Part shown: piece after piece, positions 548-49,234 of the stretch | How positions within the stretch are numbered: position 1 is the first letter of the stretch | Layout of the letters: every line of letters starts with the position of its first letter | NCBI GenBank assembly: GCA_024137785.1 | Contig: JAHRHZ010000068.1 | Location: 1,173,609-1,237,608 of the forward strand | From: Ginglymostoma cirratum | Taxonomy: Eukaryota | DNA: 64,000 bases | Direction of reading: 5' to 3' | Notes under the pieces: generated by a model | The model's input: the letters and a program-made list of their open reading frames with translations, nothing else | What the model was told of the DNA's origin: nothing | Database searches by the model: none | Translations under genes and position numbers: made by a program

Positions 548-1150
548 TTCTCAATGGAGGTGATCGTGGGTTTGGAAGGTGATATCTTTGGTGAATTTCT
601 ACAATGCATCTTATTAATAGTACACGCTACTGCTACTCAGCGTCGGTTATGGAGGGTGTGAATGCTTGTGGATGTGGTGCCAATCAAGTGGGCTGCTTTG
701 TCCTGAATGGTATCAAGCTTTTTGAGCATTGTTGGAGCTACACCCACATAGGCAAGTGGTGGACAGCCTTCCTCTGATCTTATAATGGATGGAAGGTCAT
801 TGATGAAGCAGCTGAAGATGTTTGAGCCTAGGACACCACCATGAGGAACTCCTGCAGAGATGTGCTGGAGCTGAGATGACTGATCTCCAGCAACAACAAC
901 CATCTTCCTCTGTGTCAGGTATGACTCCAACCACCAGAGAGGTTCCTGATAGCAGAGATAAAAGGTACTGCAGATGCTGGAGAATCCGAGATAACAAGGC
1001 GTGGGGCTGGATGAAGGGTCTAGGCCCGAAACGTCAAGTTTTCCTGCTCCTATGGGGTTCCTCATAGCCATTGATTCCAGGTTTGCTAAGGCTCCTTGAT
1101 GCCACAATTGGTTAAATGCAGCATTGATGTCAAGTCCTGTCACATTCACC
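548..1150 (-). mobile_element. CR1/L2-group LINE reverse transcriptase fragment, interrupted at 954-1055
   Basis: ORF 637..1200(-) contains 'SAGVPHGGVLGSNIFSCFINDLPSII' (RT motif GVPQGSVLGP..F..FINDL) and 'LKKLDTIQDKAAHLIG'. The YADD region is missing. Confidence 0.85.
954..1055 (+). mobile_element. Short Penelope-type element with hammerhead-like core, subfamily 1
   Basis: Contains 'gatgaagggtctaggcccgaaacgtc'. Flanked by a 13-bp direct repeat, ggttcctgatagc (941-953) / ggttcctcatagc (1056-1068). Confidence 0.7.
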
Positions 1151-2519
1151 TCACCTAGATATTGGTGTTCTATTCCTTGACATTGGTATTCCTTGTGCAT
1201 TGTCCTGATGACTGCAAATGTAAAGTTTCAACAAAATGTGTTTCTTTCAGCAATACTGAAGTTCTGTACTATTGAACAGTTGTATATAATTTTATACTTT
1301 ACCTGTAGGTGTTTATGATTAAAATAATATTTTTATACTTTAACTGTCAGAAATTACTTAGGGTAAACTGATGCATTAAAATCATGATAGAACAACTCCC
1401 AACTGGACAACCCCTTGTTTACTGCTGTTGAATACTTATGCATAGTTTCTGGTTATAGTTTCCTAGCTGTTGAGCTCCAAGTTTTTGCTAAGGCCAGAGT
1501 AGGTCACGGGGTATTAACCAGTCATCTTGCTGAGGAAGGCAGTAAAAATCAGAGAATGAGTAAGGAAGGTTGAGATTGGATATTTTTTTCTATAGGTTAG
1601 TGTTACACTGGTTAAGATTAGCTGTCTGAACACAGAATAGGGAATGTGATGTGGGACTTAACCCACAGCATCACTCAATTTAGATAATCAGGTATGTCTG
1701 TGTTTTTTTTAATAGTCATTTGCAGGAACTAAAACTGTTTGAGAAGTTACATTTGGAACAAAGATTCAGACTTTTTTTTGAAAAGTGTGGAAGATTATCT
1801 ACTAACTACAATTCTGTTCATAATGCATTCATATGACTCCATCTACCGTCAGTGTGGAATATTGTTGTAAGGCAGCACCTCCTGTGCTAACCACTGAACC
1901 TTAAAACAACACCATTAGTATGCCTGCAGCCGACAATGTTCATAGCTTCCTTATAGTGATGACATTTTAGTACACTAGTGGGCGAGATCTTTGAAAAAAC
2001 AGCATTTGCTCTAAAATGTATGAGAAATGAATGCAAATTAAAATCAGCATTTGTTGATTAGTTGATTTTTACTTAAAGTACTAATATTTGGAAATCAAAA
2101 CCTGCTCACAAGAGTGCTCTGCAACTTACTTTTTAATAGATTGTGCATATAAAATATAGGTTAAAGCTCAAGTATATCAGAGAGAACTCAATGGAAACTG
2201 TGCAGGAAATTGCCTATTGGGAGCATTTTTACTGGGTAGCTTACCATCATTGGTCTAATTAACTAATTAGTGAGATGCTAATTACTGTACTGTATGCATG
2301 AATGCATGAGTAAGGGGAGTTATGTAACAGCTTTAATCTTCAATTAATATAATTTCACAGGAGGAAAAGCTATGTCAAGAGACTAAACTTTAGCCCTCGG
2401 ATACTAGATTTGCTGTAATCTTTTATAGTGTGGCACATTTTTGTTCTAAAGTAAATCGTAATTTGCAATGGTATTTATTACACAGTGAAACACAGTTCAA
2501 AACAAACCATCTGTCAATG

Positions 2520-2605
2520 CAGAAACACAGGAACAGAAGCAGACCAGCAGTTCTTCAAGCCTGAGCAACCATTCAATTAGATGATGGCTGACCTGTACTT
2601 CAGCA
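2520..2605 (-). mobile_element. Short CR1-type LINE 3' tail remnant
   Basis: 'aagcctgagcaaccattcaattagatgatggctgacctg' resembles the CR1 3' UTR copy starting at 31118. Confidence 0.5.
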
Positions 2606-8625: not shown

Positions 8626-8976
8626 GGAGCAGCAAGGTGGTTCAATGGTTAGCACATTGCCTCAAAGCGTCAGGGGCCTGTGTTCAATTCCAGCCTCAGG
8701 AGACTGTGTGGAGTTTGCACATTCTCCCTGTGTCTACATGGGTTTCCTCCTGGTGCTCCAGTTTCCTCCCACGGTTCAAAGATGTGCAGGTTAGGTAGAT
8801 TGGCCATGCTAAATTGCCCCATAGTGTCCAGAAATGTGTAGGTTAGATGGATTAGCCATGGGAAATGCAAGGTTACAGGGATAGGGTAGGGGATGCATCT
8901 GGGCGAGATGCTCTTCTGAGAGTTGGTGTGGACTTGTTGGGCTGAATGACCTGTTTCCACACTGTAGGGATTCTCT
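8626..8976 (+). mobile_element. HE1-type V-SINE
   Basis: tRNA head (ggtggttcaatggttagcac ... gttcaattcc), V-domain 'tgtggagtttgcacattctccctgtgtct...gtttcctcccac' and CR1-like tail 'acctgtttccacactgtagggattct'. Confidence 0.9.
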
Positions 8977-10099
8977 GGAAATTGGCCATTTTGATGACTG
9001 AAAAAGACATTTCACTGGTAGGGATCATGGAGCAGTGGGGCTTGATTTCCAATGCACCCCTTCTGACACACTCCATTGAGGACAGTTCAGATCACTGGCA
9101 GGATGTCCTTCAGAATGTCAGGGCCTGGAAAGTCCAGGTATGTATTGCTGCATCTGAGTGTGAACTGCAGATTTCTGGTCTGCAAGCTCGTGTGGTCCTA
9201 CTAAAGGCATAAACAGAGTGAGAGACAGGAAAGCAGCCACCACGTCATCCTGAGAGCAAGTTGCAGAGAACATGTGACATTGAATAATGGTTCATTTACT
9301 CAGTTATCTTGACAAACCAGTCCTACCAGTCATTGTGTAAAAATGTTGTCTGCTCATCATTGTTTTTCAGTGAGATGGTAATATGTTTTAAATCTGCCTG
9401 CTCCACAAGGCCAGTAAACCTAGATCCTGTGTGGGCCTTCAGTGCTCCTTCTTTAAAAAAATAGGCTGGAGCTTCATAAACATCATCAAATTGTGGCCCA
9501 CTCCATGTGTGCTCTACACAGTGGAATGAGATATTATCTGGGTGAAGCAGAAATTCATAAAGTTACTACATGAATCATTGCAGCCCTTACATAGCACTAT
9601 TAGGCTATGCCGCTGATCTTTGTGTGGCAAGGAGGGGCCTGATTGCTTATCCAGGGTTGACAGAAATGTTCCCTCCTGCTGGTGGGCCTTTGTCACCGCT
9701 CTGTACAGCTCCCACACCTCTACCCTCTCACCAGCTTTTTGATCATACATTCCAGCCTGCCTCTGTGTAAGCAGCCATTGGATTCCTGTGGACTTTGAAT
9801 CAGCAAGTTGCTAACGGTATACTTTAGTACTGACAGTTCACCAAAGTTATTGTTATGAGATGCAATAATTAACTTCCACAAAATGAGTTTCCCTCCTCAG
9901 TACATACTGAATGTGTACCCCAAAGTGAAAATCAGTTTCATGCTTTCCCATTCTCAGGAATCGGAACATGGGAGGACTTCTCCGGTCATCTATTGGCAGA
10001 TTTTATTTTCCTGAATCAACGCAATGTCTAACAACCACCCCATATTGGAACATTTACAGTCAGTGAAAGATGACTTCACATAATTCAGTTCTGTCAAAA

Positions 10100-17325: not shown

Positions 17326-17935
17326 TCTCATAGCATCATAGGAATATACAGCATGGAAACAGACTCTTCGGTCCAACTCATCCATGCCGACCAGATATTC
17401 TAGATAAAACCAGTCCCATTTGCCAGCATTTGGCCCATATCCCACTAAACCCTTCTTATTCATATCCCCATCTAAATGCCTTTTAAATGTTGTAATTGTA
17501 CCAGCCTCCACTACTTCCACTGGCAGCTCATTCCATATATGCACCACTCTCTGTGTGAAAAAGTTGCCCTTTAGGTCCCTTCTAACTCTTTCCCCTCTCA
17601 CCTTAAACCTACGCCCTCTAGTTTTGGACTCCCCCATCCTGGGGAAAAGACCTTGCCTATTTACCTTATCCATGCCCCTCCTGATTTAAAATCCTCTACA
17701 AGGTCATCCCTCAGCCTCCGACACTCCAGGGAAAACAGCCCCAGCCTATTCAGCCTTTCCCGATAGCTCAAGCCCTCCAATCCTGGCAACATCCTTGTAA
17801 ATCTTTTCTGAACCCTTTCTAGTTTCAAAACATCCTTCCTATAGCGGGGAGATCAGAGTTGCACACAATACACCAAAAGTGGCTGAACTAATGTCCTGTA
17901 CAGCCGCAACATGACCTCCCAACTTCTATACCAAT
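17326..17935 (-). mobile_element. CR1 (HER1-like) LINE, 5'-truncated 3' end
   Basis: ORF 'MDKVNRQGLFPRMGESKTRGRRFKVRGERVRRDLKGNFFTQRVVHIWNELPVEVVEAGTITTFKRHLD' is the CR1 ORF2 C-terminus, followed by the 3' UTR. Confidence 0.92.
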
Positions 17936-18489: not shown

Positions 18490-20060
18490 GGATGAACAGA
18501 TTCATTCAGATTGAAAAAAGAGAAAAAGTACTTATGGAGAGTGAACTCACAAACAAAAATCAAGTGGACTATATAAAAAAAAGAGGAAAACAAAACCAGA
18601 GGTTACAAAGACTAAGGGGAGTGGGATATAAACAGCAGCTAGCAGGTAACAAAAGGCATAATAAAGTATTATGTAGATGTATAGAAAGTAGGACCGATTA
18701 GAGATGAAGGAGGGAAATCTTATTGTACAACATGAAAGAAAAACGGTAGTAAACTTGTACTTCTCCACAGATTTCAAAGAATACAATAGAATGAAAATTT
18801 ATCCCTGGAGGAGGTGCATTAATTATATCATAGATAAGAAACTGAACTGAAAAATTTAATGAAATTGAAAATCAAAAGACAGGTTCAGGTGACTTCCAAA
18901 ACGCTCAGAAAGGAAATAGCTGATGTTGTGACTACAACTTTTAAAATATCTTTCAATATTGAAGCAATATTGAAAACCTGGAGGCCAATGTGATGCCTCT
19001 GTACAAAAATGGGCATGGATAAACACGGTAAGAAATGTCTAAACTTCTTAAAGGCCACAATGCAGTTTCAAATTAATTATCATTCGGTAAATGCAGCTTA
19101 ATTAATGGCAAGTACCACTTACTGATAAAGGAAATGCCATGTCTGAAAAATTGAGCTCTTTGAAGAAATAATGGAATGTGTAAATGAAAGAATGGCAGTG
19201 GATATTATGTGTATTTATTTTTAAAAGCCATTTGTTAAAGTGTTGCACAGGGACTTATGGCTAAATTAAGGCATATGGCTTTCAAGGGAATGAGACAGCT
19301 TGGAAGCTACTTAAAGGAAAGAAAACAGAGAGTACAGCTTAAGAGAATTATTTGGAGCAGGAGGGATGTAAACAATGGAGTCTCCTGGGGGTCAGTTTTG
19401 AGACCATTATTTTTCTCAATAGAAAGAATGATCTAGACTTGTGAATAGGAAGAGGGGGAGGGGATGGCCTTGTGGTATTATTACTAGACTGTTAATCCAG
19501 AGACCCACAAAGTATCTTGGGGACCTGGGTTTGAATCTAGCTATGGTAGATGGTGAAATTTGAATTCAATAAAATAAAAAACTAGAATTAAGAGTTTAAT
19601 GATGGCCATTGCCAATCGTTGGAAAATCCATCTGATTCATTAATGTCCTTTAGGGAAAGAAATCTACCATCCTCACCTCGCATACATGTGACTCCAAACC
19701 CATGTCAATATGATTGACTCTTAAAAAACTGCCCTCTGGGTAATTAGGAAAGGCAATAAATGCTAGCCTAGCCAGTGATATCTTCAACCTGTTAATGAAT
19801 GAAAAATTTCTTAGTTTTCAAGTATATTGGTACATACAAGGAACATAGTTAACTAAGAAAAATAGTGTAAGTCTGAAAGGACATGGATAGTTTAGTGGAT
19901 TGGGCAGTTGGATGTCAAATGAAACTTAATGTGAAAAAATATGAATAGAAATGTTGCGAGAAATAGTGGATAGGAAATACGTATTAAATGATAAAATTCT
20001 AAAAGCAGTAGGAGGTTTATGCATTCAGATATACAAAAATTTAAACGTGGGAGGGCAATT
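18490..20060 (+). mobile_element. Degraded CR1 ORF2 fragment, interrupted by a SINE
   Basis: Recognisable RT motifs: 'W-RANVMPLYK'-like at ~18980, 'aaagccatttgttaaagtg' (KAFDKV) and 'ggagtctcctgggggtcagttttgagacca' (GVPQGSVLGP). Confidence 0.7.
19455..19806 (+). mobile_element. tRNA-derived SINE (family A), near full length
   Basis: Box A 'tggccttgtggt', anticodon-arm-like 'gactgttaatcc', box B 'gggtttgaatct'. Body and tail are shared with four other copies. Confidence 0.85.
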
Positions 20061-22853: not shown

Positions 22854-23007
22854 AGAAAACACCTTGGAGCAACTGAGTGCTGGTGCGGAGCGGATTGGCG
22901 GCTTGGATCCGTGTCGGGACATTTGTTAGACTGGGGTCTGGTACTGGCAGTCAATCCACATATGAAAACCCCTGAGCTGAGCTATTGCAATACAATGTTT
23001 ATTTGCA

Positions 23008-23136
23008 GAGAGGTAGTGGGAACTGCCGATGATGGAGAATCTGAGATAACAAAGTGTAGAGCTGGATGAACACCGCAGGCCAAGCAGCATCACAGGAGCA
23101 GGAAAGCTGACGTTTGGGTCTGGACCCTTCTTCAGA
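23008..23136 (-). mobile_element. Short Penelope-type element with hammerhead-like core, subfamily 1
   Basis: Minus strand reads 'ctgaagaagggtccagacccaaacgtcag'. Exact 14-bp flanking direct repeat aatgtttatttgca at 22994-23007 and 23137-23150. Confidence 0.75.
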
Positions 23137-23769
23137 AATGTTTATTTGCAATTGTTTATCTGAGTGTAACGTCTATCCTTTCAACTTGCCTTTCAACTAT
23201 GTCATATTTCTAACTTGTACTATATATCACTGTAAAGTAATGAAACTACTTATCTATTTTATTCGTCTTTTTGTATCTAAAACTTGTACCGAGGTATTTA
23301 GTACCTAAGATGGCGCCATAAGAGGCAACATTGTAAACTTTTCACTGTACTCCTGGACTTGGGTACACGTGACAATAAAGGATATTCTTTTTCTATTCTA
23401 GGCATAAGATGTTGTCATTGGTTCAATGTGGGAACATCACATGTAGGCAAGACTTCAAACAAATTAAAGTGTTAACTTTTATTGAACAATTGGAAAAGCA
23501 AAGATAAAGCAAACAAGAAAAACTGCATTTGACTCTGGGAATAAACAAGAGCTGCTTATTTTTCAAGTAACAACAAATGTACAGTCAATGAATGATCACT
23601 TCATCCTCCTCTTATTCAGTGGAGATGGGTATCAACTAAGTTCTGTCTTGCTTGTTGTGCCTGACACTGCTGTGTTCTGTCATGCTAAGGGTACTAATGG
23701 TCCTACTCAATGTCATCTGCTTCCTCTCTGAAAGACTGCTGTCGCTCTCCCAACTCTTCAGTGACAATC

Positions 23770-24470
23770 TCATCCTCTCTCGCCCTACTCCAGTTGCGCA
23801 GAGTGCAGCCAGCAAGGATTATGCACACTCTGTCTGGATTGTACTGCAAAGCCCCAGAGACCTGTTTGATGTGTGGAAATTTATCTTCAGGATGCTTTTT
23901 ATGTGCTCTACCATGGTCCCAATGGAAGAATGCCTACACTTAACATCAGTCATAGGTTGTGTATCAGAGTCATTAGCCATGGCTGCAAAAGGTAGCCCTT
24001 GTCTTGCAATACTCATCCTTGTAGGGCATCTGGCCCTTGAAATAAAGCAGGAGTCTGAGAGATATCATGGACATACACATCATGGCAGCTTCCACGGTGC
24101 CTGGTGCAAACTTCTAGGGCTTAGATTTAAGATGAGAGGGGAAAGATTTAACAAGGACCTGAGGGGTAACGTTTTCACACAGAGGGTGATGGTATATAGA
24201 ACAAGCTGCCAGAGGAAGTGTTGGATGCAGGTATAATTACAATATTTAAAAGGCATCTGAATGGGTATATGAATGGGAAAGGTTTAAAGTGATATGGGCC
24301 AAAAGCTGGCAAATGGGACTAGATCAAATTGGGATATCTCGTTAGTGTGGAAGAATTGGACCGTAGGGTCTTTTCTATGCTGTATGACTCTATGACTGTA
24401 GGAGTCCTGAGATGCACCCCATTGTGATGATGGGTACCTGTGGCCAGTCAGCTGCATTGCAATATAAGGT
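23770..24470 (-). mobile_element. PIF/Harbinger transposase relic (best preserved), split by CR1
   Basis: Minus-strand translation 'AADWPQVPII' (GAIDCTHVAI-like) ... 'LLEVCTRHRGSCHDVYV..SQTPALFQG..G*VLQDKGYLLQPWLMT...VEHIKSILKINF..NRS-GALQYNPDRVCIILAGCTLRN' follows the HARBI1-family catalytic motif order. Stops and frameshifts are present. Confidence 0.88.
24113..24397 (+). mobile_element. CR1 LINE 3' end
   Basis: 'RFKMRGERFNKDLRGNVFTQRV' plus 3' UTR ending 'tgtatgactctatgact'. Homologous to 17326-17935. Confidence 0.9.
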
Positions 24471-27487: not shown

Positions 27488-27841
27488 TTCTTATTCATTA
27501 GCAGGATGAGGATGCTGGCTAGGCAGCATTATTATCCATCCCTAATTGCCCAGAGGGCAGTTCACAGTCAACCACATTGCTATGGGTCTGGAATCACATG
27601 TAGGCCAGACCGGGTAAGGATGTCAGTTTCCTTCCCTAAAGGACATTAGTGAACCAGGTGGGTGTTTCCAACAATCAACAATGGATTCATGGTCATCATT
27701 AGACTCTTAGTTCCAGATTTTTTTTATTGAATTCACATTCCACCATCTGCCGTGGCGGGATTTCAACTCAGGTCCCCAGAATGTTATCTGGGTGTCTGGA
27801 TTAACAGTCCAGCGACAAGACCACTATACCATTACCGCCCT
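27488..27841 (-). mobile_element. tRNA-derived SINE (family A), near full length
   Basis: Reverse complement of the 19455-19806 type, well conserved. Confidence 0.88.
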
Positions 27842-30232: not shown

Positions 30233-30415
30233 AAGAAAAAATCAGTGTTAATGTTTCGGGTCCTGTGACTCTTGCTCAGCAGAGTTCTGAGGAAGGGTCA
30301 CTTGACCCAAAACGTTAACTCTGTTTTTTTCCTCACAGATGCTGCCAGACCTGCTGAGCTTTTCCAGCAACTTTTGTTTTTGTTCCTGATTTACAGCAGT
30401 TCTTTTGGTTTTTAC
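30233..30415 (+). mobile_element. Short Penelope-type element, subfamily 2, with two opposed hammerhead-like motifs
   Basis: 13-bp flanking direct repeat ttatcttcccatg (30220-30232) / ttatcttccaatg (30416-30428). Internal inverted repeat at 30243-30323. Confidence 0.75.
30280..30323 (+). ncRNA. Minimal type I hammerhead ribozyme-like motif (G12 mutated in this copy)
   Basis: CAGAGUU-CUGAGGA-A-GGGUC-ACUU-GACCC-(A)AAAC-GUU-AACUCUG gives a 7-bp stem I, a CUGANGA box, a 5-bp stem II, a GAAA box with G>A, a palindromic ACGU helix III and the NUH triplet GUU. Confidence 0.6.
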
Positions 30416-30769
30416 TTATCTTCCAATGCCTTTCTCAAGTCACCAGTATTAACATGTTTGCAATATCGCCAGTGATACAATGAGTATCATGAGGCCACTT
30501 AATTACAAAATATTTCAGCGATCAATTGTGTTCTCACTTGGGTCTAGAATTTTGACAATGCTGCACTAGTTTTACAGATGGATAATGAGCACAAAGACGT
30601 CCAAAATGGTTAATAGTGTGCATATTTATATTGGACGAAACTTAATTTCCCACTCAGGAGCAGGCACAGAGGTGGGGAGTTGTGGCCATAGATTTGTGAA
30701 GCAAGATAAATGTGCATTGCTGTCAATTTCCCAATCACCATCCCGTCCTATTAAGTCACGGTAAGGAAG

Positions 30770-31974: not shown

Positions 31975-32238
31975 GGTGGCATGGCAGCTCAGTGGTCAGC
32001 ATTGCTGACTCACAGCACCAGGGACCTGGGTTTGATTCCAGCCTTGGGTGACTCTCTGTGTGGAGTTTGCACATTCTCCCTGTATCTGTGTGGGTTTGCT
32101 CCAGCTTCCTCCCACAGTCCAAACATGCGCAGGTTAGGTGGATTGGCCATAGCAAATATAGGGTGCGCAGTGGTGGATCTGGGTGGGATGTTCTTTGGAA
32201 GGCTGAATGGCCTGCTTCCATACTGTAGGGATTCTATG
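31975..32238 (+). mobile_element. HE1-type V-SINE
   Basis: Clear homology to 8626-8976 (head, V-domain, tail 'tactgtagggattctatg'). Confidence 0.88.
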
Positions 32239-32249
32239 TGTTAGCTGCA

Positions 32250-33052
32250 GAAAGTCCCATTCACATATCACCCTTGTTCACTCTGATGCTTGTTAACTTC
32301 TGTCCAAAGTCTTTATTTTAAATTGTCTTCCTTGTTCCTAAATTACTTGCACTTCCGTATCCTTGTATTTTTCTGAAATTCATTCACAGGATATGGGCTG
32401 CTTAAGCCAGCATTGATTGACCATCTCTTATTACCTAGAAGATACTGATGAGTCAACCACTTTGCTGTGGGTCTGGAGTCACATCTGGACCAGACCAGAT
32501 AAAGATGGCAGATTTCCTTCCCTAAATGACATTAGTGAGCCAAATGAGCTTTTAAAACAGTCAACAATGTTTACATGGTTGCCAATGGACGAACTATTTA
32601 TTCCAGATTTTTTAGTGAATTCAAATTTCTCCATCTGCAATGGTGGGATTCAAACCCATGTCTCCAGATCATTAAGCTGGCGTTCTGAATTAGTCATCGT
32701 AACCACCACTGCCACGTTCTTCAGTCCTACAACCCTCTGAGAAATCTGCGCTCCTGAAACTCTGGCATCTTGACCATCAATTTTAGTTGCTACATCCTTG
32801 TGGCCATGCCTTCAATTACCTAGGCCCCCCCAAGCTCTGGATTACATTCCCTGCGGCTTTCTGTTTCTCCAGCTTGGTTTCCTCATTCTACACTGCTCAT
32901 TATGACCTCATCGTTGACCAAGCTTTTGGGATCTGACCTAATATCTCTTTAAGTGGTGCAGTGCCATATTTTGTTTTACAATGCATTTGCAAAACACTTT
33001 GAAACAGTTCTTTGTGTTAAGGATACTACGTAAATATGATATTGTTATTGTA
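32250..33052 (+). mobile_element. L2-clade LINE 3' end, interrupted by a SINE
   Basis: Remnants of FKI..LV, G.AF..LGP.LW..P and L.DQAF motifs, plus an L2-type tail ending 'aaatatgatattgttattg'. Confidence 0.55.
32375..32720 (-). mobile_element. tRNA-derived SINE (family A)
   Basis: Homologous to 27488-27841 ('gggtctggagtcaca..ccagacc..ttccttccctaaa.gacattagtga'). Confidence 0.82.
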
Positions 33053-35310: not shown

Positions 35311-36918
35311 AACTATTTCCCACCTTGTCCTGCAAATTTCTTTGGTTTGATGGATTCACCAACTATCCCTTAACATTTCTGCATTCAGTTTTGTATTGTG
35401 AATTTTGGAAATGCAGGGAAATATTCAGCAGTTCCATATTAATAAATTCTAAAGGAACATACGTGTAAATATTTTGGGTTGATCTTTAATTTTATTGATA
35501 TAGGTAGTCTCTTCTGAGATATGATAAAATGAGGGGGTTTTTTTTAGTATAGAAGCTTTCAATGCAGTAAACTAGGATTCTTAGGGATTCAGTTCAACCA
35601 ACCTTCTTTGAAAAAAGCTTTTAAAATGGTGCTATGTGCTGTGATTTAACAAGAAATTTCGATGTCAAAATTGACATCAGGCAGCAAGGACTTTGTGGCA
35701 TCCCAGCAACAACCATATTGGTTTACTAATCAAGTAACTAAAATTTGTTTAAGAAACAGGCACTTCAAGTCCACCATCCGTAATTGAACATTCGGGGAGT
35801 GAGAAAGATTAATTGAGGCCCTAATGTAAATTTCACCAATCTAACTACCAAAGGCAAATGTTTTAAATTCTGAAAGGTAATAACGTTTTCATTCATAAAA
35901 CTACATGAGGTTGGGTTTTCATAGTAAAAAACACATTAAAATGCTTAGATGAAATTTCTCTTTCTGCCATTGTAATAAAGGCATTAATCAGTCTATTATA
36001 AATGAGGTAGCACCTATGTTAAATCATATGAATGTGCTAAAGTGCTCCTTATGAATATCGTTAAGTGCAATTCAACACCCCCTCCCCAATGATAAAAGAT
36101 GCTGAATGATTCACTTCTAATTCATAACTAGTTTACAATGCTCTTATTCCTGTCACTAATCACTGAGAATTCATGTGTTGAATCTCAATCATGCTTCTTG
36201 CAATATCATAACCACATTCAGTGAGACAGTTTCCATAAAAACAAAAATAGCAGACATTTGGCAATAAAATGTCTGATATGGTTTAGACTTCTGAATACTT
36301 GGTTTAAATAAGAAACATATTAACTATCAAAAATGCAAAATTATGTTGTTTGACCTTGAATTTAGAGAGTAAATAACTTAATTAAAAATACAGTAAACAT
36401 CAGTGCAAGAAAAGCAGAAAATATCTGCATTTTCTTTCCATAAAGTGTTGAAAACCTAATAATGAAACAAGTCATTTGGCTTTGATTTTCTAAACTGTCT
36501 TCCTTCCATATTCTCTTTTTGTAGGTTACTACAGCCTTGGTAATTTTGCTTCCTTCTTTAATTTTAATGGGAACTGCACTAGAACACATGCTTATTTGAT
36601 GGATGTGACTAGTGACTTTTTAATCAATTAATTATTGCCACACTTATCCAAAAATTTAAATTCACACAGTGTGATCACACTGAGTAGTGAGGTACAGATG
36701 TAGAAACTCCACTATTCACTTAAACTATTCCTTAACTGTTTTTTTTGTTCCTGATGATAATTCTCACTGTGATAGCTCCTACTTACTCTATTAGACCTAT
36801 TATTTAAAAAGAACTGTTTCAGTGTGGGAAAGCTTCCAAAGACTGGAAGGGCCTAATGAGCATGCCCCTATTGAAACTACAAGAGGGCACAGGAAGAAAT
36901 CTAATTAAGGGATTGTCT

Positions 36919-37074
36919 TAAATAAAACAAAGAACTGCAGATGCTGAAGATCTGAAACCAAAAAGCAGGAATTGCTGGAAAAAATGAAGAGTCACTCGAC
37001 TGGAAATATTAACTTTGCTTTATCTCCAGATACTGCCAGACTGGCTGAGTTTCTCTAGCAATTTATGTTTTTGG
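36919..37074. mobile_element. Short fold-back Penelope-type element, subfamily 2
   Basis: Arms homologous to 30233-30415. 13-bp flanking direct repeat taagggattgtct (36906-36918) / taaggaattgtct (37075-37087). Core degenerate ('tgaagagtcactcgactggaaatattaac'). Confidence 0.7.
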
Positions 37075-38559
37075 TAAGGAATTGTCTGATCCATCTTAAT
37101 GAAACACCATCTCTAATGCTCTTCTTTCTGCTTTTCTTTACTGCTGTGATATCCCCTCAAAGCCCACATTTTCAAACAAATACCCAGCCTCATCTCTTAA
37201 ACTTTCACCTATGACTCTAGGCCTGTTACCCTTACTATTTCTTTTTGAAGTGATTTGGGACATTAAATGTGAGCTGATGGCGTGGTCAATAGTATGTACC
37301 ATGGATCATTTCACAGGATATTACTACAAGTGAAACAGTGGAAAATTGAGTTCAAGCATCAGAAATCTATTGCTTCTCCTGGTGCATAGGTAATAAAGCC
37401 CATTTTGTAAATAAGAGAAGAATTTTATTAATGGCTACTGTGCAAGTGAATCATCCAAACTAGAAAGCTATGTTAGCAGGTAGCAACAGACTGTACTGCT
37501 TCAAAAATTCTTCACTCTTGAGTTGGAGGAAACAAACTCACTACAATGTAACAATTCAGTTACACCCACCAGAACTGTGATGGCTCCCATGATGGAGTAG
37601 ATTTCAACTTGACCAACAGGCATTTATGAAAATGAACCATTTGAATTAAATATTGAATTGTGAAAAGCCTTTTTTGGCTGCATTTCAGAAAAAGTTCATA
37701 GCTTTTGACAGGGAAACAAACATAGGTCAACATTAGTTTTGATTTGGAGGCAAGAAAATTTTGTCCTTTAGCCATTGCCGAATATTAATAGAAGCACTAA
37801 CTTCTTTGGCCAGAGCTTTTTTTCCTTCTGACTGCTATTCAGGCATCCTTACAAAAAGTGTGGATGTGGAAGAGTCAAACGCATACAGCAGTTGTCTCGG
37901 CTGTCCTGTCCCTTATAATCAAATAACTAGCTGATACTTACAGAATTGGCAGAAATGTAAGGAACCATCTTTTAAATCATGCAACAGAACACTGACCCCA
38001 TTGGATTTGGCCTCTAAGTGGACCTAGAAAAATCATGAATGTACAGTGGTAAGAGCCAGGGGGTATGCAAAGTCAAACAATTTAGTAAGTTCTTACAAAG
38101 CCAATATTTAAAAAAAAGGCTTTTATTCTTAATTGCTCCAAGTGCAAAAGACAAAGTACGCAAAGAGGATTTGCATTTAGTGAGTTTCAATTGGAAACAT
38201 TTCTTGTTCTACAGAAAATTGACTGCCTAAAGAAAGATGCATTAGATTCTTTAAATCAATTGTATTCTTGTTTAATAAGATGATTGACCTGTCAAAAGTA
38301 TTAGATATATTCAGATTATTCCTGTTACACTTTAGGTAAACTCAAATCCAAAAATGGAAAAATGTGATTACTACAAAAAATTAGAACATTTTTCAATCCC
38401 TTTCAATATCGTGAACAAAATAAAAATGTAGCTTGTTGGTGGATGAGATAAATATGTGAACAGAAGGTAGCTAAACCATGAGACCAAGTGAAGAGTTAAA
38501 TTAGTGTTTGGTTGATATTTAGTTAGTATTATTGCAGATGCAATTTCTCGAGCTCACCA

Positions 38560-39489: not shown

Positions 39490-39740
39490 CCATCTGCCTG
39501 GCAACTAAATGTAAACAATCCCATGGCACTACTTGAAGATGAACGAGGGTTTTCAGCTTCCCCAGCAGTTATTTCTCAATTAACGATTGTTACCAGTCAA
39601 CTCATTGTTCTGTGCATGTTACGTATATGATTGCCATTTTTTCAGCATAAAAAAAATGAAGAGACCACAAATTCAAAAGTAATGAATTAGCTGTGAAGTA
39701 TTATAGAGTATCTTGTGGGTATAAAATACGTGATCATAAA
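39490..39740 (+). mobile_element. Degraded DeuSINE (SacSINE1/AmnSINE1-like)
   Basis: 'atgtaaacaatcccatggcactacttgaagatgaacgagggtt' matches the recalled Deu-domain core (gatgtaaaagatcccatggcactattt.gaagaagagcagggg). Later 'ttcaaaagtaatgaattagctgtgaagt'. Confidence 0.65.
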
Positions 39741-39759
39741 CCTCTACCTTATTTACAAT

Positions 39760-40140
39760 ATGCCTAAAACAATGGCCAAGGGCATGGTGCCCACAAAGGG
39801 TCCCAAGAAAGCAGCAACCAAGAAGCATGTCAAAGGCGAGAAGAAGTGTAGGAAAAGTTGGAAGGAGAGCTACAGCATCTACATCTACAAGGTGCTGAAG
39901 CAGGTCTACCCAGACACTGGCATCTCCTCCTCCGCTATAAGTGTTATCAATCCGCTCATCAACAGCATTTTCAAGCTCGTCGGCTGCAATGCCTCCCACC
40001 TCATCTGCTACAGCAAGTGGCAGACTATCTCCTCCTGGGAGACAGAGACCACAGTCTGCCTGTTGCTGCCCAGGGAGCTGGTCAGACACACTGTCTCTGT
40101 GGGTACCAAGGCAGTCACCAAGTACACCAGCTGCAAATGA
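39760..40140 (+). pseudogene. H2B: Isolated divergent histone H2B; open 126-codon frame, probably a pseudogene
   Basis: MPKTMAKG...[23 protein letters not shown]...[26 protein letters not shown] is colinear with H2B from ATG to TGA. Many conserved Arg residues are changed to Cys/Trp/His. No histone 3' stem-loop and no neighbouring histone genes. H2B homology is near certain; pseudogene status is inferred. Confidence 0.85.
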
Positions 40141-40193
40141 AGCATCTCATCAGACAATATTAGGACAGAGAATAAAATAACTAAACTGCACTC

Positions 40194-40393
40194 AGAGATA
40201 GCAAGAACCACAGATGCTGGAGTCAGAGTCAATACAGTGCGGAGCTGGAGGAACAGACAGGCCAGGCAGTATCAGAGGAGCAGGACAGTACACATTTCAT
40301 CAGTCCAGATGAACAGTCTAGGCCCGAAACGTCAACTCTCCTGTTCCTCTGATACTGCCTGACCTGCTGTGTTCCTTCAGCTCCATACCGTAT
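40194..40393. mobile_element. Short fold-back Penelope-type element, subfamily 1
   Basis: ~58-bp inverted arms (40231-40289 and 40335-40394) around 'cagatgaacagtctaggcccgaaacgtc'. Imperfect flanking repeat taactaaactgca (40178-40190) / taactaaaataca (40394-40406). Confidence 0.72.
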
Positions 40394-41302
40394 TAACTAA
40401 AATACATGGTAAATATTTTCTAATCAACCTATTCAGAGATATTACTACATATCCTTGCAGCAGATGGTACTGGTGTGTTTTGCCTATTTCTATCTAAGCA
40501 GTGCTTAAAATCCAATAGTTTATTTCTCCTAAATTTGATCCCAGTGTGAAGCCTGCTCATTTTGTTGCTCTAATGAAGGTTGAAGCTAGTCAACGTATTC
40601 TTTGACAGGCTGAAATCAACACTATTCAGCTGCTAAAGGATGAAATGACAGCTTATGAATTCAGTCTTGCTTGGATTGTGCACTTCTTTCATCCTTTCTT
40701 CCCATTCAACGTTCTATTTTGATACTTTCTTTGAATATAATTATTGAGACAAAGGACCAGTTTCATAAATATAAATGATTAACAAGGCTTAAATTTCTTG
40801 AAGAAAGATTTAAACTGCCGTAATATTGATCACGCTTAATATTTTATTTGTGAGGTCTAATTTTAAATGGTTAGTACTGTTTGACCAATATAAGCATCTG
40901 CCCTTAATATCTCCAGACAACGTACGTGCTTGTGACAGTAACTGCAAGTCATTTCTTTTAACATTGGGAATCTTGGGTATTTTCTCTGCCAGAGTAGTTC
41001 CTGGAAGGTTTTCTTTATATGGCTCATGCTGATATTATCCTATTTAATTGCATGGGACAAAAGTATTTACGAAAGAAAACTAAACAGTCAAAGGATAACC
41101 TCCTCCTTTCCTTAAAGAATAAATTAATGACAAGTTATATAAGAAGGATGTTGTTTGAGGTACTTAGATTATAGGGACTAAGGATTTTTATGTGCTCAGT
41201 AAGGAAAGCACAGAATCATTATTCTCTATGTTGACAGGCAACTGAGCTCTTGCATTCCCTCTGCCAAATATTTTTCCTGTACAAGGCTTAAAATGGCCAA
41301 GA

Positions 41303-41456
41303 TTAAAGACAGAATACTATTGATGCTGGAAATCTGAATCAAATGTAGAAAATACGAAGAAATTCAGCAGGTTATATCGGACACAAAAGTTAACTCTTTC
41401 TCTCTCCACAGATGCTGCTAGACCTGCAGAGTTTCTCCAGAATGTTCAGTGTTTAT
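41303..41456. mobile_element. Short fold-back Penelope-type element, subfamily 2
   Basis: Arms homologous to the 30233 and 36919 copies, core largely deleted. 15-bp flanking repeat ttaaaatggccaaga (41288-41302) / ttaaaatggtcagga (41457-41471). Confidence 0.68.
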
Positions 41457-43019
41457 TTAAAATGGTCAGGAATTGTCTATAATTTCAACTATCTCTTCCA
41501 TTTGGTACTAGTTATGATAGTTTTGATATAACTCGCTCTCACTTTGCCACTGCTTGGTTACAGACTAGTCATTTGATTTCCATATTATGATTTGCTTCTT
41601 CCTGCATTACTGAACTATTTATTGAGGAATTTATCTTTTATATTTTTATCATTTTATAATTGTATAATTTCTCTTCTTATATGAAGTGGTGGACAGTATC
41701 TTTTCTCTGTAAACTGATTGCAGGGGTGCTCCTTCTTCCACTTCAGGTAAATACACAGTGACTACCTCTGCACAAATTGCTCTGGAAGTTTAAACTTGCA
41801 ATGGGTGATTATCCGGCACTGGAAGGCTCCAAAGAGGTCCCAACGCTGAGTTAGAATCAGATAGTTCAAAGGGTTCTGATTGATTTAGCATAACAGTACC
41901 CAGGAAACCCTGCTCTGACTTCTGGTTAACTATTAAAAATGACACCTCGCCCTGAACCATCAATGACACCCAACCCCAGTCTAACCCTTGACTCCCACCT
42001 GAATCCCTAAATTCCCAACCTGATCCAAACCCTGACTTCCTGATCCACAACCAGGAATCCAGCTCCTGCTGACCTCAGGGAATCCCCGCAAATCCCCAAT
42101 ACCACCCACTCCCAACTCTTCACAGGTCCAAATCTCCTGATAGATTACACCTGGACTGACTTTTCCCATTCCATCAACCCACAATACCAACAACCAAACC
42201 AATCCCTCTACCCCACCATCCCCATTAAGACCAGTGCCAAAATACCATAAGCACTTATCCACTCACCTGCCACCTTGACTCCCATTCACTGGGCAACCAA
42301 TACCCTCCAACCACCAACAATGAGTAACCACACTCACCTGTTACTCCAACAGCTCATACAGCTGGGACCCTAACCCTTATCCACCTTCCACTCTTATTCC
42401 CTCAGCTACCTGGCACCCTACTACTAACCACCTCCCAACCTTAAATCCTCACCTATCTGTGCTGGTGAGGGTCAGCTGAGTTGGAGATCAGGTTATGTTG
42501 GATTGTGGCAAACTCAAGGGAATAGGTGTCAGTAATTTGGAGGCATTGAGGTGGTGGTCAGGTATCAATTTGAGGTCGGTCCTAGTGGGCCTTGTGAATC
42601 AGGGCTGACTGGGAATTTCTTCCTTTCTGTTTGCTGGTATTAGTTTGCACATTGATAATCAACCTGTATTTTATGAGCACACCTTCCTTGGTCATCAGCT
42701 CCTGGGATAGGAGTTGAACTCGGAGCTTCTAGCTTAAGTGCAACTGAAGACCTCATTGTCATCCAGCAGCTCACCTCAAAATCCTAGCAAAGTACAAGAG
42801 CCTAGATCAGAGGCAAAGCTAAATCCTTGATGCTGACTCTACAAAATAGTGTACCACTACACCTTTTAAGAATTCCCCCAATATCAATATAGATAATTTG
42901 AAGTCCGTCAATCGTATTTCAGAGTTCATACATTGAAATCAGTTTCAGCACCAACAAATTAATCATTCCTTCTTCATAAAAAAAACAGGCAAAATGAGAA
43001 GAGGTTGCTAGTTACAATA

Positions 43020-43153
43020 AAATAAAAGTACTGCCAATACCGTAAATCAGAAACAAAAACGAATACAGAAATTGCTAGAAAATCTCAGCAGGTCTGGCAT
43101 TATCTGTGGAGAGAAAGCAGAGTTAATGTAATGTGTCCAGTGACCCTTCAGAA
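43020..43153 (-). mobile_element. Short Penelope-type element, subfamily 2 (single arm)
   Basis: Reverse complement of 30285-30410 ('ttctgaagggtcactggacac...attaactctgctttctctccacag'). No clear TSD. Confidence 0.65.
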
Positions 43154-43384: not shown

Positions 43385-45670
43385 CGCAGGATCTGGGTGT
43401 CCTGGTACATGAATCACAAAATGTTAGAATGCAAATATAAGAGGTGATTCAGAAGGAAAAGGGGATATTATCATATGTTGAAGGGGAATGGAATACATAA
43501 GTAGGGATATTTTGCTACAGTTGTACAAGGTATTAATAAAACAACATTTTGAGTGTTATGTATCATTTTAGTCTCTTTATTTAGGAAAGTACATAATTGG
43601 ATTAGACGTGGTTCACAGAAGATTCACTTGACTAATTCCTAGGATGAAAAGTTACCCTATGAAGGAAGCTTGCACAGTTTAGACCTGTATCCATAAGAAT
43701 GTAGAAGATTGAGAGGTGATCTTATTGGAATATTGTTGCTGAAAAGACATTGTAAAGATAAGGCCAGCAATTACAGACCAGTCAGTTAACTCTGGTAATA
43801 GGGAAACTTTTACAAACAGTAACCCACAGTAGTCCTGATGAAGTGTGTAAACCCGAAACAGCGACTTTCCCGCTTCTCTAGTACTGCGGGACCTGCTGTG
43901 TTCCTCCAACTCCACACTGTATCAACGCACAGCAGTGTGGTTGGCTCTTAACTGCCCTCTGGGATGGGCAATAAATGCTGGCCCAGGCAGCAATTCCCTC
44001 ATTTCATGGATGAACAAGACAAAATGTTCAGGATAGGATTAATAATCACACAGAGAAATGCTGGTTAATTTGGAAGAGTCAGCATGGATTTATTAAGGGA
44101 AAATCCTGTCTAACTAATTTGCTGGAATTTTTTTGAAAATAAATTGTTGATTACAGCAATGCTGTTCAAAAAGGCACTCAAATCAGTGCCACACAATTGA
44201 CTTGTGAGAAAATTATAGCTCATGGAATAAAAGGGACAGTAGTAACAGATACAAAACTGGCTGAGAGATGGGAAACAGGGAGTCTTGGTTAATGGGTTTT
44301 TTTTGGACTGGAGGAAGATTTCTGTAGGAGTTCCCCAAAAGTATTGGGACTTTTGCTTTTTCTGACATATGTATAGAAATAATCTAGATTTTAGTATGCA
44401 GGGAGCAATTTTAAAATTTTCAAATACAAAACTTGGGAGTACTATAAACTGTGAGGAGGACAGTGTAAAACTGTAAAAGGACATTGACAAGTTGAGGGAT
44501 GGACAGGTAGGTAGCAGATGAAGTTCAATGCAAAGTAATGTGAAGTGATACATTTTGGTACGGAGAATATAGGGAGACATTATGAAATAAAAGGCATTAT
44601 TCTCAAGGCTGTGCAGGAGCAGAGAGACCTGGGTGTGTCTGAGCATAAATCATTGAAAGTACCATTAAAGGGACAGCAGTAAATAAAGCATTCATTATTT
44701 CTGGTTTCATTAATATGGCATAGAGTACAGGAGCTGGAGATTATGTTGAACTTAAATAGGACACTAGTCAGACCTTATCTGGAGCACTGTGTATGGTTCT
44801 GGATCCACACTATAGGAAAGATATGAACATATTGGAGAGAGTGCCAAAGAGGTTTATGAGAATGATTCCAAAGATGAAAAACTTCAGGTATGAGGAGAGA
44901 TTGGACAAGTTGGACAGTTTGTCTTGAATATGAGAAGGTAAAGAGGAGATCTGCTAGAAGTTTTAAAGATCATGAACAGAGTGGCTAGGTAGACCAAGAA
45001 ACAGATCAAGAATGAAAGGACACAAATTTATAATATTTTGGACAAGAAGCAAACAAAAGATGGAAAAAATTCATTTAGTCAGTTGTCAGGGTATGGAAAT
45101 CACCACCTTCAGTGTGATGGGGGCAGGTTAACTTGACATATTCAAAACAACATTAGATGATTATTTAAATAAAAACAAAGTGCTGCATTCTGAGAAAAGA
45201 ACAGGAGATTGGCTGAAAGCCAATATGCTCAGAGGGCTGGTACAGGAATGATGGCTGAAGGCCTCCTTCTGCACCATAACAATTCCAAGATTCTGTGATA
45301 ACATCCTGAATGGACTTGACAGGTTGGATACTTTAAAAAATTTTCCACTTGTGGCAGAGACTAGAACTAGGAGACACAGGATAGAAATGAGAGATTTGCC
45401 CATTTAACACGAACTCGAGGAGAATTTTTTTTCTCTCTCAGAGAGGTGTCAGTTTGGGGAATTCTCCTCCCAGATAGCCATGAAGGCAAGAACTTTGAAT
45501 ATTTTTAAGGTAGAGGTAGACAGGTTCAGATCTACAAGGGAGACAAAGGGTATTGGGAAAAGCCGTGAATGGAGTTGAGGTAAAATCAGAACATCCATGA
45601 TCTTATCAAATCCCAGAGCAGACTTGAGGGCTCTACTCTGATTGGCCCTTCCTGCTCCTAATTTGTATTC
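43385..45670 (+). mobile_element. Stack of CR1 ORF2/3' fragments (43385-43755, 44030-45285, 45295-45670)
   Basis: Motifs RDLGVLVHES.., SQHGFIKGKSCLTNLLEFF, GVP, LVRPYLEHCVWFW.PHYRKD and two separate 3' UTR ends. Confidence 0.85.
43834..43923 (+). mobile_element. Short Penelope-type element with hammerhead-like core, subfamily 1-like
   Basis: 'ctgatgaagtgtgtaaacccgaaacag'. 13-bp flanking repeat aacccacagtagt (43821-43833) / aacgcacagcagt (43924-43936). Followed by a family A SINE tail to ~44020. Confidence 0.68.
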
Positions 45671-47939: not shown

Positions 47940-49020
47940 ATCTGGTGGCCTTCCAAGCAATCATCCTCTAGACAACAGCGATGATCTCCCAGTTTTCAGT
48001 GTCAATGTCTGCTATCTTCTTATCTTGATTGGAGGTGTCCTTGTAGCAGAGATATCGACACCCAGGAAATCATCACACAGTTGCCACTTCATTCTGCAGT
48101 CTTTAGATGCGCAGCCATCTTCCATCTGATGAATGTGACTGAGTCAGTACAAATGAATTGGCTTCATAACGAGTCAATGCTGATGGAATAAATATGCTCC
48201 AGGATCTTTGAGTCGGTGATCCTGTCCTGTCAAAAGATGCCAGGAATGCACCTGGGACAACAAAGGTGAAAGCTGCATGGGCTTCTCTCCTGCCTAGCAC
48301 ATGTTGTCCATGTCTCATCGCCATAGAACAGTGTGCTGAGGACACAGGTTTGATAATTTGCAGTTTGACATTGTTCCATGCTGTCTACTCAGCTTGGACT
48401 TAATAGCTGCAGCTTTTGTGATGTGTGTGTTGATTCCAGTATCAAGTGACAGATTGGTGATGATTGTTGAGCTTTGAAATGTGAAGTCATCAAGCCATCA
48501 ACAACTTCCAGTCGCGCATTATCAATGCTGACAATGACAGTTTGGCAGCATATCCTGGACAATTGCATGTACTTTCCTGTTGCTTATTGTAAAACTAAAT
48601 TCTTTACAGGCACGACAGAGTCTACCCATTTGCCACTGGAAGTACTCCTCAGTTTGGAATGTTAGTCTGGCATCATCAGTGTGGAGCAACTCTCTGATGA
48701 AGACTCAGCATACCTTTGACATGGATTTCCAGTGAACAAGTGTGAACAGCTTTCTACCAATCTCCGTAGCTGACCTAGAAGTATATGGCAGCAGCCAAGA
48801 GAAAAAAAGCTAAAAAGTGTCTGTGCCTAAATGCAACACTTTTTGGTCCCATTGTTGATCTCAAAAGGTTCTGTTTTTGTCCTCTCATAGCTGATTTATC
48901 CGTGCTGTTGTCATAGAAAGAGGCGATCCCATTGAACAGCTTCAGTGGGCAGGCAGTTTTCTTTAGGAGCTTAAATAAACAACCTCTGCTCACAAAGTTC
49001 AATGTTGTTGAGATTAATGG
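47940..49020 (-). mobile_element. RTE-clade LINE fragment
   Basis: Minus strand gives VLSTLFYGDETWTTCARQER....FHLCCPRCILASF-DRITDSKILE, then HIHQMEDG.RI.KD and RYLCYKDT, typical of the RTE RT C-terminal region. Frameshifted. Confidence 0.75.
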
Positions 49021-49037
49021 AGTCAATATTGTGATCT

Positions 49038-49234
49038 TCAGATAAAAACATAAAGTGTGGGAAGATCTCAGCGGGTCTGGCAGGATCTGTGGAAAGTGAA
49101 ACAAAGTTTGGAATTCTTGAGTCCCAAAGAACCATCATGCTGGATTTGAAATGTTAACTCTGCAGATCTATTAGGTTACTCTAACACTTCCTGTTTTTAG
49201 TTCAGATCTCCAGTATCTGCTGTATTTGGCTTTG
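49038..49234. mobile_element. Short fold-back Penelope-type element, subfamily 2, degraded
   Basis: Arms homologous to the other subfamily 2 copies. 12-bp flanking repeat atattgtgatct (49026-49037) / atatagtggtct (49235-49246). Confidence 0.62.

Follow-up and report, generated by a model that had tools for sequence, protein, structure and literature searches.

Nine related short inserts in the window (the whole 64,000-nucleotide stretch that was analysed) each consist of a single arm or of two arms placed head to head; an arm is all or part of the hammerhead-to-tail stretch, about 95-135 nt long, of one of three Penelope-like families. The parent families carry open reading frames (ORFs) and can provisionally be called Neptune-type. 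We believe that the inserts are probably run-off cDNAs, made when reverse transcriptase (RT) reached the 5' end of a capped RNA. Such stubs would be dead-end by-products and not a separate ribozyme-driven family, because their likely template was the capped front end of the element's mRNA. With somewhat less assurance we extend the proposal to Penelope-like elements at large, which may routinely make strong-stop-like cDNAs from the capped leader, primed twice at two internal sites and integrating directly.

The inserts and their parent elements

The inserts are 90-203 bp long, and eight of the nine are flanked by direct repeats of 12-15 bp; profile scans of the window gave no tenth. The original prediction located all nine, with one start now corrected from 40194 to 40191, and its eight flanking repeats with zero to two mismatches were also found again. 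Below, positions within an arm are counted from hammerhead C3 (negative, upstream), and TSD is the target-site duplication.

954..1055, no strand, family A1 head-to-head pair with a 6-nt junction overlap
953-1015, minus, tailed arm of 954, +67..+127
1010-1054, plus, clipped arm of 954, +2..+46
941..953, plus, left TSD of 954; right copy 1056-1068; 13 bp, 1 mismatch
23008..23136, minus, family A1 solo arm, tailed; inner end at -5, G12 of the core lost
22994..23007, plus, left TSD of 23008; right copy 23137-23150; 14 bp, exact
30233..30415, no strand, family B pair; TSD 30220-30232 / 30416-30428, 13 bp, 1 mismatch
30231-30279, minus, clipped arm of 30233, 0..+49
30283-30414, plus, tailed arm of 30233, -4..+134
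36919..37074, no strand, B-like pair; TSD 36906-36918 / 37075-37087, 13 bp, 1 mismatch
36924-36982, minus, tailed arm of 36919, +74..+132
36986-37073, plus, tail-less arm of 36919, +5..+96
40191..40393, no strand, family A2 pair (true extent of the 40194 insert); TSD 40178-40190 / 40394-40406, 13 bp, 2 mismatches
40195-40298, minus, tailed arm of 40194, +20..+124
40301-40398, plus, tail-less arm of 40194, -5..+92
41303..41456, no strand, old B-like insert; TSD 41288-41302 / 41457-41471, 15 bp, 2 mismatches
41378-41457, plus, arm of 41303, +15..+98
43020..43149, minus, family B solo arm, tailed, +5..about +137; a deletion damages the core; a TSD was looked for and none found
43834..43923, plus, family A2 solo arm, tail-less, -4..+87; TSD 43821-43833 / 43924-43936, 13 bp, 2 mismatches
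49038..49234, no strand, degenerate B-like pair; repeat 49026-49037 / 49235-49246, 12 bp, 2 mismatches
49043-49130, minus, arm of 49038 (profile scan)
49124-49228, plus, tailed arm of 49038, weak at 13 bits (profile scan)

Most of these inserts are inverted arm pairs. They fall into at least three families, where two subfamilies had been proposed: A1 (954, 23008), A2 (40194, 43834) and B with B-like (the remaining five). The stretch 41303-41377 resembles, by eye, a degenerate minus tail arm, and lies under the profile threshold. At 23008 the first 4 nt of the arm are common to the TSD (microhomology). The repeats with two mismatches, each weak alone, are counted because they are located at the insert ends; in a loose repeat search five of the nine inserts score at least 10, compared with 8% among 150 positions drawn at random from the window. 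The host of the 954 insert is an RT-bearing LINE fragment (RVT_1 match), and the target site is empty in 10 paralogous alignments. The fold of 40191..40393 is a single long hairpin (-107 kcal/mol) with the ribozyme buried. A spurious match to plant MIR533 was seen at 40194 in the Rfam scan, which gave a tRNA-like match over none of the nine inserts.

The wider census covers 836 kb (after exclusion of four of ten additional 100-kb stretches, which read as N) and contains 164 insertions, or one per 5 kb, so that the great abundance suggested for the family holds. Of these insertions 135 are shorter than 300 bp. Their outer ends are fixed at about +93 and at +127 to +135. There are 49 pairs, each within a single family and 44 of them with exactly one tail, and the solo arms comprise 62 tail-less, 51 tailed and 2 clipped; occasional two-copy tandems occur beside the solo and head-to-head units. 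A repeat score of at least 9 is reached by 49 of the 164 insertions compared with 0.5% of 600 swapped-flank controls, and the TSD mode is 14 bp. Solos carry TSDs (95 of the 115 have none at the threshold used) and are therefore insertion products and not recombination relics. A paralogous empty site with a single target copy was found for 8 of the 49 TSD-bearing census insertions, 954 among these. Since in addition the TSDs abut the insert ends, the suggestion that the units were inserted short, and not eroded from long elements, is upheld; their variable length supports insertion by target-primed reverse transcription.

The link to a Penelope ORF, for which the original prediction recommended a search, exists: 29 of the 30 best GIY-YIG loci have an arm on their own strand, some 370-400 nt further downstream; the ORF-linked copies all lie elsewhere in the genome and none in the window. 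Identity with these ORF-linked ends supports the suspected Penelope origin, including the guess that the inserts might be Penelope fragments. Two of the ORFs (L123 and L132) match RVT_1 and GIY-YIG; the RT is followed by a C-terminal GIY-YIG domain, contiguous with the repeat, as in Penelope-like elements with an endonuclease (EN+). Separate ORF-linked ends exist for families A2 and B, with proteins mostly 45-70% identical to the A1 query, and four long ORF-bearing insertions (L131, L132, L137, L149) have the architecture of the short inserts. Other EN+ features are the pseudo-LTR (pLTR) in partial tandem (L259) or inverted arrangement with a one-sided tail, found in the pairs described above, and TSDs of variable length (9-20 bp, mostly 12-16) in the absence of a poly(A) tail. 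The Neptune clade is defined by a CX2-5CxxC linker between RT and EN (PMC8557442). This linker, DKG and a CCHH motif in the EN are present, by eye and for family A1 only, in the L123 and L132 translations; the clade name is provisional because the linker is also found in Nematis.

The inner end and the joining of the arms

The inner ends are concentrated at one position. In the 21 nt from -12 to +8 there are 89 of 204 arm ends, compared with 10 in the 48 nt from -60 to -13 (p 5e-35; 31 and 2 in A1 alone), while 67 arms begin at +9..+90. An initiator-like motif (YYANWYY) covers the A at -4 in A1, A2 and B, and a TATA-like box is located 31, 31 and 29 nt above it, respectively; both motifs are short, read from the consensus and predicted only. 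A full-length copy (L246) begins at -5 and continues through the arm and tail into the 5' part of the ORF, and L259 has the same arrangement together with an upstream TATA-bearing partial copy. Short stubs have no upstream TATA-like box, and they are probably mostly dead ends. Raw reads (X21) over the arm and the ORF leader showed no pile of starts, both strands being read equally; read set X22 gave 13 and 380 reads. The promoter of D. virilis Penelope is internal and TATA-less (PMC2377424), so the promoter type is not general.

In family A1 an untemplated G often precedes the inner end. Genome-wide searches with A1 gave 2393 matches with a purine at -5 (63 G to 37 A among 100 matches listed), 729 with G at -6, 1328 with A or T at -6 (29 A among 100 matches listed) and, as a control, 518 with a purine at -7 (39 G to 61 A among 100 matches listed). 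The G:A ratio differs between -5 and -7 (p 0.001; hand-counted from the first 100 matches listed of each search). Among the first 20 listed matches with G at -5 there is no variant of a long copy, and in 3 the partner arm supplies the template. Family B shows no significant excess (49:51 versus 39:61, p 0.2, first 100 matches listed), and neither does the local sample once the cases templated by the partner arm are set aside (7 G of 16 non-C, p 0.26); the census part of this sample has the extra G in 2 of 8. In copies that run past the tail into the leader (+213, +279, +436), a G links each to -4/-5, and a single G occurs in 4 of the 6 listed joints that return to -5/-3 with letters between. 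Untemplated G is a mark of capped templates in L1 and SVA (PMC4859970).

We presume the following course of events. Pol II would start at the initiator-like A (-4), driven by the TATA-like box of a partial copy that lies upstream. The GIY-YIG endonuclease may cut the two target strands about 14 bp apart, and each nick would prime RT at the tail end or at the pLTR end, which are two internal sites of one repeat region. Where this region serves as the transcript leader, RT would run off after 95-135 nt and could often add a base opposite the cap, seen as G on the sense strand; where it serves as the 3' repeat, both arms would be long. Joining of the two cDNA ends with trimming, small overlaps or small insertions would give the palindrome, and a single arm could alternatively be joined to the target alone. 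The ribozyme would be a passenger, its cut site not setting the unit limits.

It is also possible, in our opinion with a rather low probability, that the stubs are ordinary 5'-truncated copies of the 3' pLTR, RT having stalled or been released at the 5' edge of the hammerhead or at a ribozyme dimer. The spike of inner ends does coincide with the 5' strand of helix I; as -4 is also the 5' edge of this helix, its position fits a structural stop as well as a start site. Published insertions are normally severely 5'-truncated and lie next to an inverted copy (PMC8557442), the long arms show that the 3' repeat is used, and the G excess in family B is weak. However, a structure should halt RT on its 3' side (+31) and not after it has been unwound; the full-length L246 ends at the same base, as do, with the G, the copies that hold leader-only sequence past the tail; and the promoter-like motifs are in register across three families. 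The census pairs are 42 short with short and 7 long with long, with none mixed (p 1e-8), which also speaks against truncation, although the lack of mixed pairs is perhaps partly a bias, the references having been extended only about 1 kb upstream; two long-short pairs (L245, L249) occur among 30 loci with the 5' part of the ORF.

The palindromes might instead arise by self-priming fold-back of the cDNA or of an antisense template, with endonuclease trimming of one end to leave the tail, as has been put forward for Adineta elements (PMC3846280); we regard this as improbable. In its favour, derived bases are shared within pairs at 0.041 per site versus 0.029 between insertions (29 of 40 pairs, p 1e-4), and some centre junctions are perfect small palindromes. 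The shared variants can also be explained by one source RNA, by subfamily structure or by gene conversion, and many junctions hold untemplated bases. In 21 of the 42 short pairs the tailed and the tail-less arm each hold sequence that the other lacks, so neither was copied from the other; the tailed arm is the clipped one in 21 of the 42, an outcome that fold-back of the cDNA could not produce. The tail-first version of fold-back fits just 6 of the 42, and tailed and tail-less arms each occur solo in similar numbers. Hit pairs about 456 bp apart that share a rare base were considered as same-template evidence and rejected, since the hits flank N runs at palindrome centres.

The hammerhead motif

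The description of the inserts as hammerhead-bearing stands at the family level. In 34 copies 91.5% of cells are paired, covariation exceeds 500 of 500 shuffles and slid controls reach at most 50%; the invariant core columns of this set are no evidence, because the rows were picked for an intact core. The core, the extra base, helices I and II and a palindromic helix III agree with the minimal hammerhead of Penelope-like elements. An intact minimal core was found on either strand in 0 of the 9 window copies, 41303 lacking the CTGANGA half entirely, and in 35 of the 111 census arms that span the motif. Rfam hammerhead models gave no match at E<=5 across the window, which is no evidence against hammerheads because minimal motifs lie outside these models. 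In the copies seen, the frame that begins with the ATG in the core is short.

The unit boundary lies mainly at -4 and not at the predicted cut (+28). Five of 68 placed partial arms begin at the cut, with no clear peak, and 23 more could not be placed. A non-C before the cut gave 693 exact matches, a count without a neighbouring-position control; among the 100 listed, whole motifs with a point mutation make up about half and palindrome centres about 14.

The original prediction suggested a separate non-autonomous, retrozyme-like family mobilised by a Penelope element; to this, or to a MITE-like version, in either case with short master elements mobilised in trans, we assign only a slight chance. 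The outer ends are very uniform and there are thousands of look-alikes of about 200 bp; of the 35 intact-core arms in the census, 16 are short; non-LTR retrozymes are themselves pLTR-derived, with solo monomers common (10.64898/2026.07.22.740005). Against this, the centre junction differs between copies, so there is no master unit, and the master-element reading is rejected on this ground; the units form a continuum, co-linear, with ORF-bearing copies; head-to-tail arrays are absent from the window; no window core is intact, and arm pairing buries the ribozyme. Unit ends that lie mainly away from the predicted ribozyme cut and the missing TATA-like box may further disfavour a retrozyme-like family. 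The MITE version, which would require a fixed TSD and true terminal inverted repeats, is excluded by TSDs of 12-16 bp, ends made unequal by the tail and solos with no inverted repeat.

That -4 is a splice acceptor, or that the templates were ribozyme-cut RNAs, is very improbable: the 5' end of helix I is the downstream limit of an intron in D. virilis (PMC4209133), a pyrimidine tract with CAG at -4 exists in A2 and B, and 3 of the 15 top read joints have one side at the predicted cut, but A1 shows the same spike with no AG at -4 (for which splicing is rejected), no common upstream exon is attached, and starts at the cut are as few as given above.

Meaning and comparison with known systems

Returning to run-off from the capped leader, we consider the elements ordinary Penelope products whose value is mechanistic, since their junctions likely record how Penelope-like elements insert. 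If the proposal is true, the stubs, about 0.7 million in the genome, would preserve a fossil record of where transcription starts, of both RT starts, of the 14-bp stagger between the nicks and of how the ends are joined, and inverted pLTRs would arise by double priming on sense RNA and not by antisense self-priming. Testable signs are a sharp initiator start with a cap-like G, one tail per pair, unmixed arm lengths and clipping of the tailed arm. For annotation, each stub belongs with its parent Penelope family and should be entered neither as a MITE nor as a retrozyme or miRNA hairpin. Long hairpins, by the hundreds of thousands in introns and UTRs, might also supply dsRNA.

The structure of paired arms plus tail is already published; the start-site and cap evidence was not found in those accounts, and the origin of inverted ends and tails is called undefined (PMC8557442, PMC11167929). 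EN+ Penelope-like insertion units are described as a 5'-truncated copy with an adjacent inverted copy and a 30-40 bp tail at one end (PMC8557442; Adineta Pen2a, PMC3846280). Common to these and to our inserts are head-to-head inverted arms, a one-sided tail of about 34 nt, TSDs, partial tandems, TATA- and Inr-like pLTR motifs and solo pLTRs. What differs from these accounts is the predominance of very short insertions that stop at one base position, and the misfit of the published antisense self-priming to half of the short pairs.

For PAc (Poseidon, Anolis carolinensis) in vitro, both strands are cut and extended, ribozyme cutting is dispensable, and the tail is bounded by two internal RT starts, which lie 110-150 nt into a leader that contains a hammerhead (PMC11167929). 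We propose from sequence the same tail boundaries here, in elements that have a Neptune-type Cys linker unlike PAc; genomic run-off stubs, cap-derived G and arm joining are not described in that paper.

The predicted motif resembles metazoan minimal type I hammerheads of Penelope-like elements in its CUGANGA core, extra base before helix II, G10.1-C11.1, GAAA, palindromic 15.2/16.2 and 4-bp helix I, and differs in a helix II of 4-5 bp instead of 7-8 (PMC4209133). The same source credits dual opposite-strand motifs and many single motifs to truncated elements, and its Results and Discussion do not mention sharks. Non-LTR retrozymes are likewise pLTR-derived, non-coding, hammerhead-bearing, dependent on Penelope-like proteins and present in a chondrichthyan; their definition demands tandem units in head-to-tail order, a complete ribozyme in every unit, and a circular RNA (10.64898/2026.07.22.740005). 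Unlike those, our units are solo or head-to-head, with mostly broken cores and with limits at a start-site-like position and at RT starts.

As in L1 twin priming, priming at a second nick would give the inversion, and untemplated G occurs at full-length 5' ends (PMC4859970). Unlike in twin priming, both arms copy one sequence from two fixed starts. Retroviral strong-stop DNA is a short cDNA that extends from an internal primer site to the 5' end of the RNA; the short cDNA proposed here would, in contrast, integrate directly, with no template jump.

The nine inserts of the window

All nine related inserts of the original prediction are found at their sites in the window, and eight of them carry the 12-15 bp flanking repeats ascribed to them, with 0-2 mismatches (49038 was read from the printed letters). 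The flanking repeats of five of the nine exceed a loose chance level of 8%; the three inserts with weaker repeats were counted because of the repeat position. Below, an arm is the stretch of ~95-135 nt from hammerhead to tail, a pair is two arms head to head and a solo is one arm; A1, A2 and B are Penelope-like families.

Features of the window (inserts are named by their start)
954, 30233, 36919, 40194 (40191-40393), 49038: pairs
41303: probably a pair too
23008, 43020, 43834: solos
637-1227 (-): RT-bearing LINE fragment (RVT_1, 2e-5) with insert 954 inside
39697-40140 (+): degenerate histone H2B-like reading frame (Pfam Histone, 3.6e-9), probably a pseudogene, ending ~50 bp ahead of the 40191 insert
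40244-40381: A2 palindrome matching plant MIR533 (45 bits, under the gathering score of 80)
276-510, 19456-19806, 27525-27840, 32416-32691, 43928-44028, 49646-49855: dispersed repeats (SINE- or LINE-like), unrelated to the inserts
8658-8977 and 32006-32238: dispersed repeats of the same kind, unrelated to the inserts
17358-17629 and 24104-24374: dispersed repeats of the same kind, unrelated to the inserts

Going by the MIR533 match, annotation could mistake such stubs for miRNA hairpins. The inserts had been described as hammerhead-bearing; the Rfam check gives no hammerhead match in the window, and none of the nine has an intact minimal core. Considered by family, the motif has the minimal type I hammerhead form presented in PMC4209133: helices I and II have 91.5% of cells paired, with some two-sided changes, in rows picked for intact cores, and the core is intact in 35 of 111 census arms. 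In pairs the ribozyme is buried inside a long hairpin. There is no clear peak at its cut site among arm starts, and the cut-site position occurs in 3 of the 15 top read joints.

Parent elements and abundance

Arm coordinates are relative to hammerhead C3. For 40194 and 30233 alike, the 30 top-ranking genomic matches, chosen for likeness and hence biased towards full length, consist of two arms of one sequence, both directed outward from a centre whose junction varies between copies; the outer end of one arm is fixed at +124 to +135, and that of the other falls ~34 nt before it. The supposed link to Penelope elements holds: among the top 30 GIY-YIG loci, 29 have the arm in the same orientation 370-400 nt downstream. 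Frames of 615 aa (locus L123) and 714 aa (L132) contain RT, a Cys-rich linker and GIY-YIG, a layout that is Neptune-type according to PMC8557442. Families A2 and B have ORF-linked ends of their own, and long insertions (arms of 0.45-2.6 kb, one tail) have the same build; the short inserts are thus the small end of a continuum.

The census covers 836 kb of non-N sequence, drawn from the window, the flank on its right and six stretches elsewhere, after removal of four further stretches that read all N. It contains 164 insertions, one per 5.1 kb, and 135 are under 300 bp. There are 49 pairs, each within a single family; 44 of these have one tail and no more. The remaining 115 insertions are solos (tail absent in 62, present in 51, clipped in 2). 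A TSD score of at least 9 is reached by 29/49 pairs and 20/115 solos, versus 0.5% of swapped flanks; the TSD length mode is 14. A one-copy target is seen in paralogues of host repeats for 8 of the 49 TSD-bearing insertions, including 954, whose host LINE fragment has paralogues with the empty site. With a genome size of 4.36 Gb, a rough extrapolation gives ~0.85 million insertions, 0.7 million of them short.

Outer ends at loci L301-L360 often have, by eye, 2-4 nt in common with the TSD start, which suggests primer-template pairing at initiation. Runs of N occur at palindrome centres with a junction on both sides (L325/L326, L331/L332, L359/L360); they are possibly assembly gaps from hairpins, and the counts may be slightly inflated.

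Inner ends and the formation of pairs

Starts of the 204 census arms that extend to an outer end fall at -12..+8 in 89 cases, at -60..-13 in 10, further upstream in 38 and at +9..+90 in 67 (p 5e-35 for the spike at -12..+8). The young family A1 alone, with a known upstream reference, gives 31 starts in the spike vs 2 at -60..-13. A TATA-like box stands 31, 31 and 29 nt above the -4 A in A1, A2 and B, respectively, and an initiator-type YYANWYY spans this A in all three. Locus L246 begins at -5 and continues via arm and tail into the ORF 5' part; L259 has the same layout plus an upstream partial copy carrying the TATA-like box. The arm thus serves as the 3' repeat and, probably, also as the opening 130 nt of the transcript. 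The hammerhead-core ATG is in frame with the ORF N-terminal part, with two stops between (L246:430-900, L259:345-900). In poly(A) reads arm depth is ~10x that of its flanks and the ORF leader is covered as well; no pile of read starts is seen in these reads and both strands are equally covered. This coverage comes mostly from copies within host transcripts.

The census pairs are 42 short/short, 7 long/long and 0 mixed (p 1e-8); the set of 30 ORF-5' loci includes 2 mixed pairs. At least one arm reaches the spike in 39/42 short pairs. In 21 of the 42 the tailed arm is clipped and the tail-less arm is whole, therefore neither arm was copied from the other. Fold-back self-priming, the origin of palindromes proposed in PMC3846280, cannot make these 21; it fits only the 6 opposite cases and perhaps the 12 with both arms whole. 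Derived bases common to both arms are slightly more frequent than expected, which could have several causes. The short-pair pattern agrees with the in vitro behaviour of PAc: cleavage and extension affect both strands, two internal starts delimit the tail, and no ribozyme cut is required (PMC11167929).

A cap-like G and known elements

A1 counts are exact genome-wide matches, with base ratios from the 100 matches listed per search. A purine at -5 gives 2393 matches (the 100 listed split 63 G:37 A), G at -6 gives 729, A or T at -6 gives 1328 (29 A among 100 listed), and a purine at -7 gives 518 (39 G:61 A among those listed, equal to the background of 40%); the G excess at -5 vs -7 has p 0.001 among matches listed. 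The first 20 G(-5) matches listed include 0 long-copy variants and 3 templated by the partner arm, 17 being not templated by it; about 8 of the first 20 A(-5) matches listed are, by eye, palindrome overlaps. Where copies extend beyond the tail and into sequence of the leader alone (+213, +279, +436), a G likewise links them to -4/-5, and a single G is found in 4/6 of the listed read/contig joints back to -5/-3 with intervening letters. In L1 and SVA, an untemplated G is the accepted mark that the template was capped (PMC4859970). Two results count against a cap signature: the ratio in family B is 49:51 (p 0.2), and the G excess is not significant in the small local sample. At L308, L313, L316, L346 and L356 the 5' junction carries a second copy of the opening 6-7 nt of the A1 arm, with G between the copies, as if the RT had re-copied the template end.

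Inverted copy, tail and TSD are already published. Main texts of the open literature yielded no paper covering short shark-type Penelope stubs, and none describing, for Penelope elements, run-off that ends at a capped start or a G derived from the cap. We believe that the value of the finding is a testable insertion model, not the element itself. The suggestion of a separate retrozyme-like family is not supported: non-LTR retrozymes are defined as head-to-tail arrays in 10.64898/2026.07.22.740005, and the inserts are not such arrays. Adineta pLTRs likewise bear TATA- and Inr-like motifs (PMC3846280); the promoter of D. virilis Penelope is internal and TATA-less (PMC2377424).
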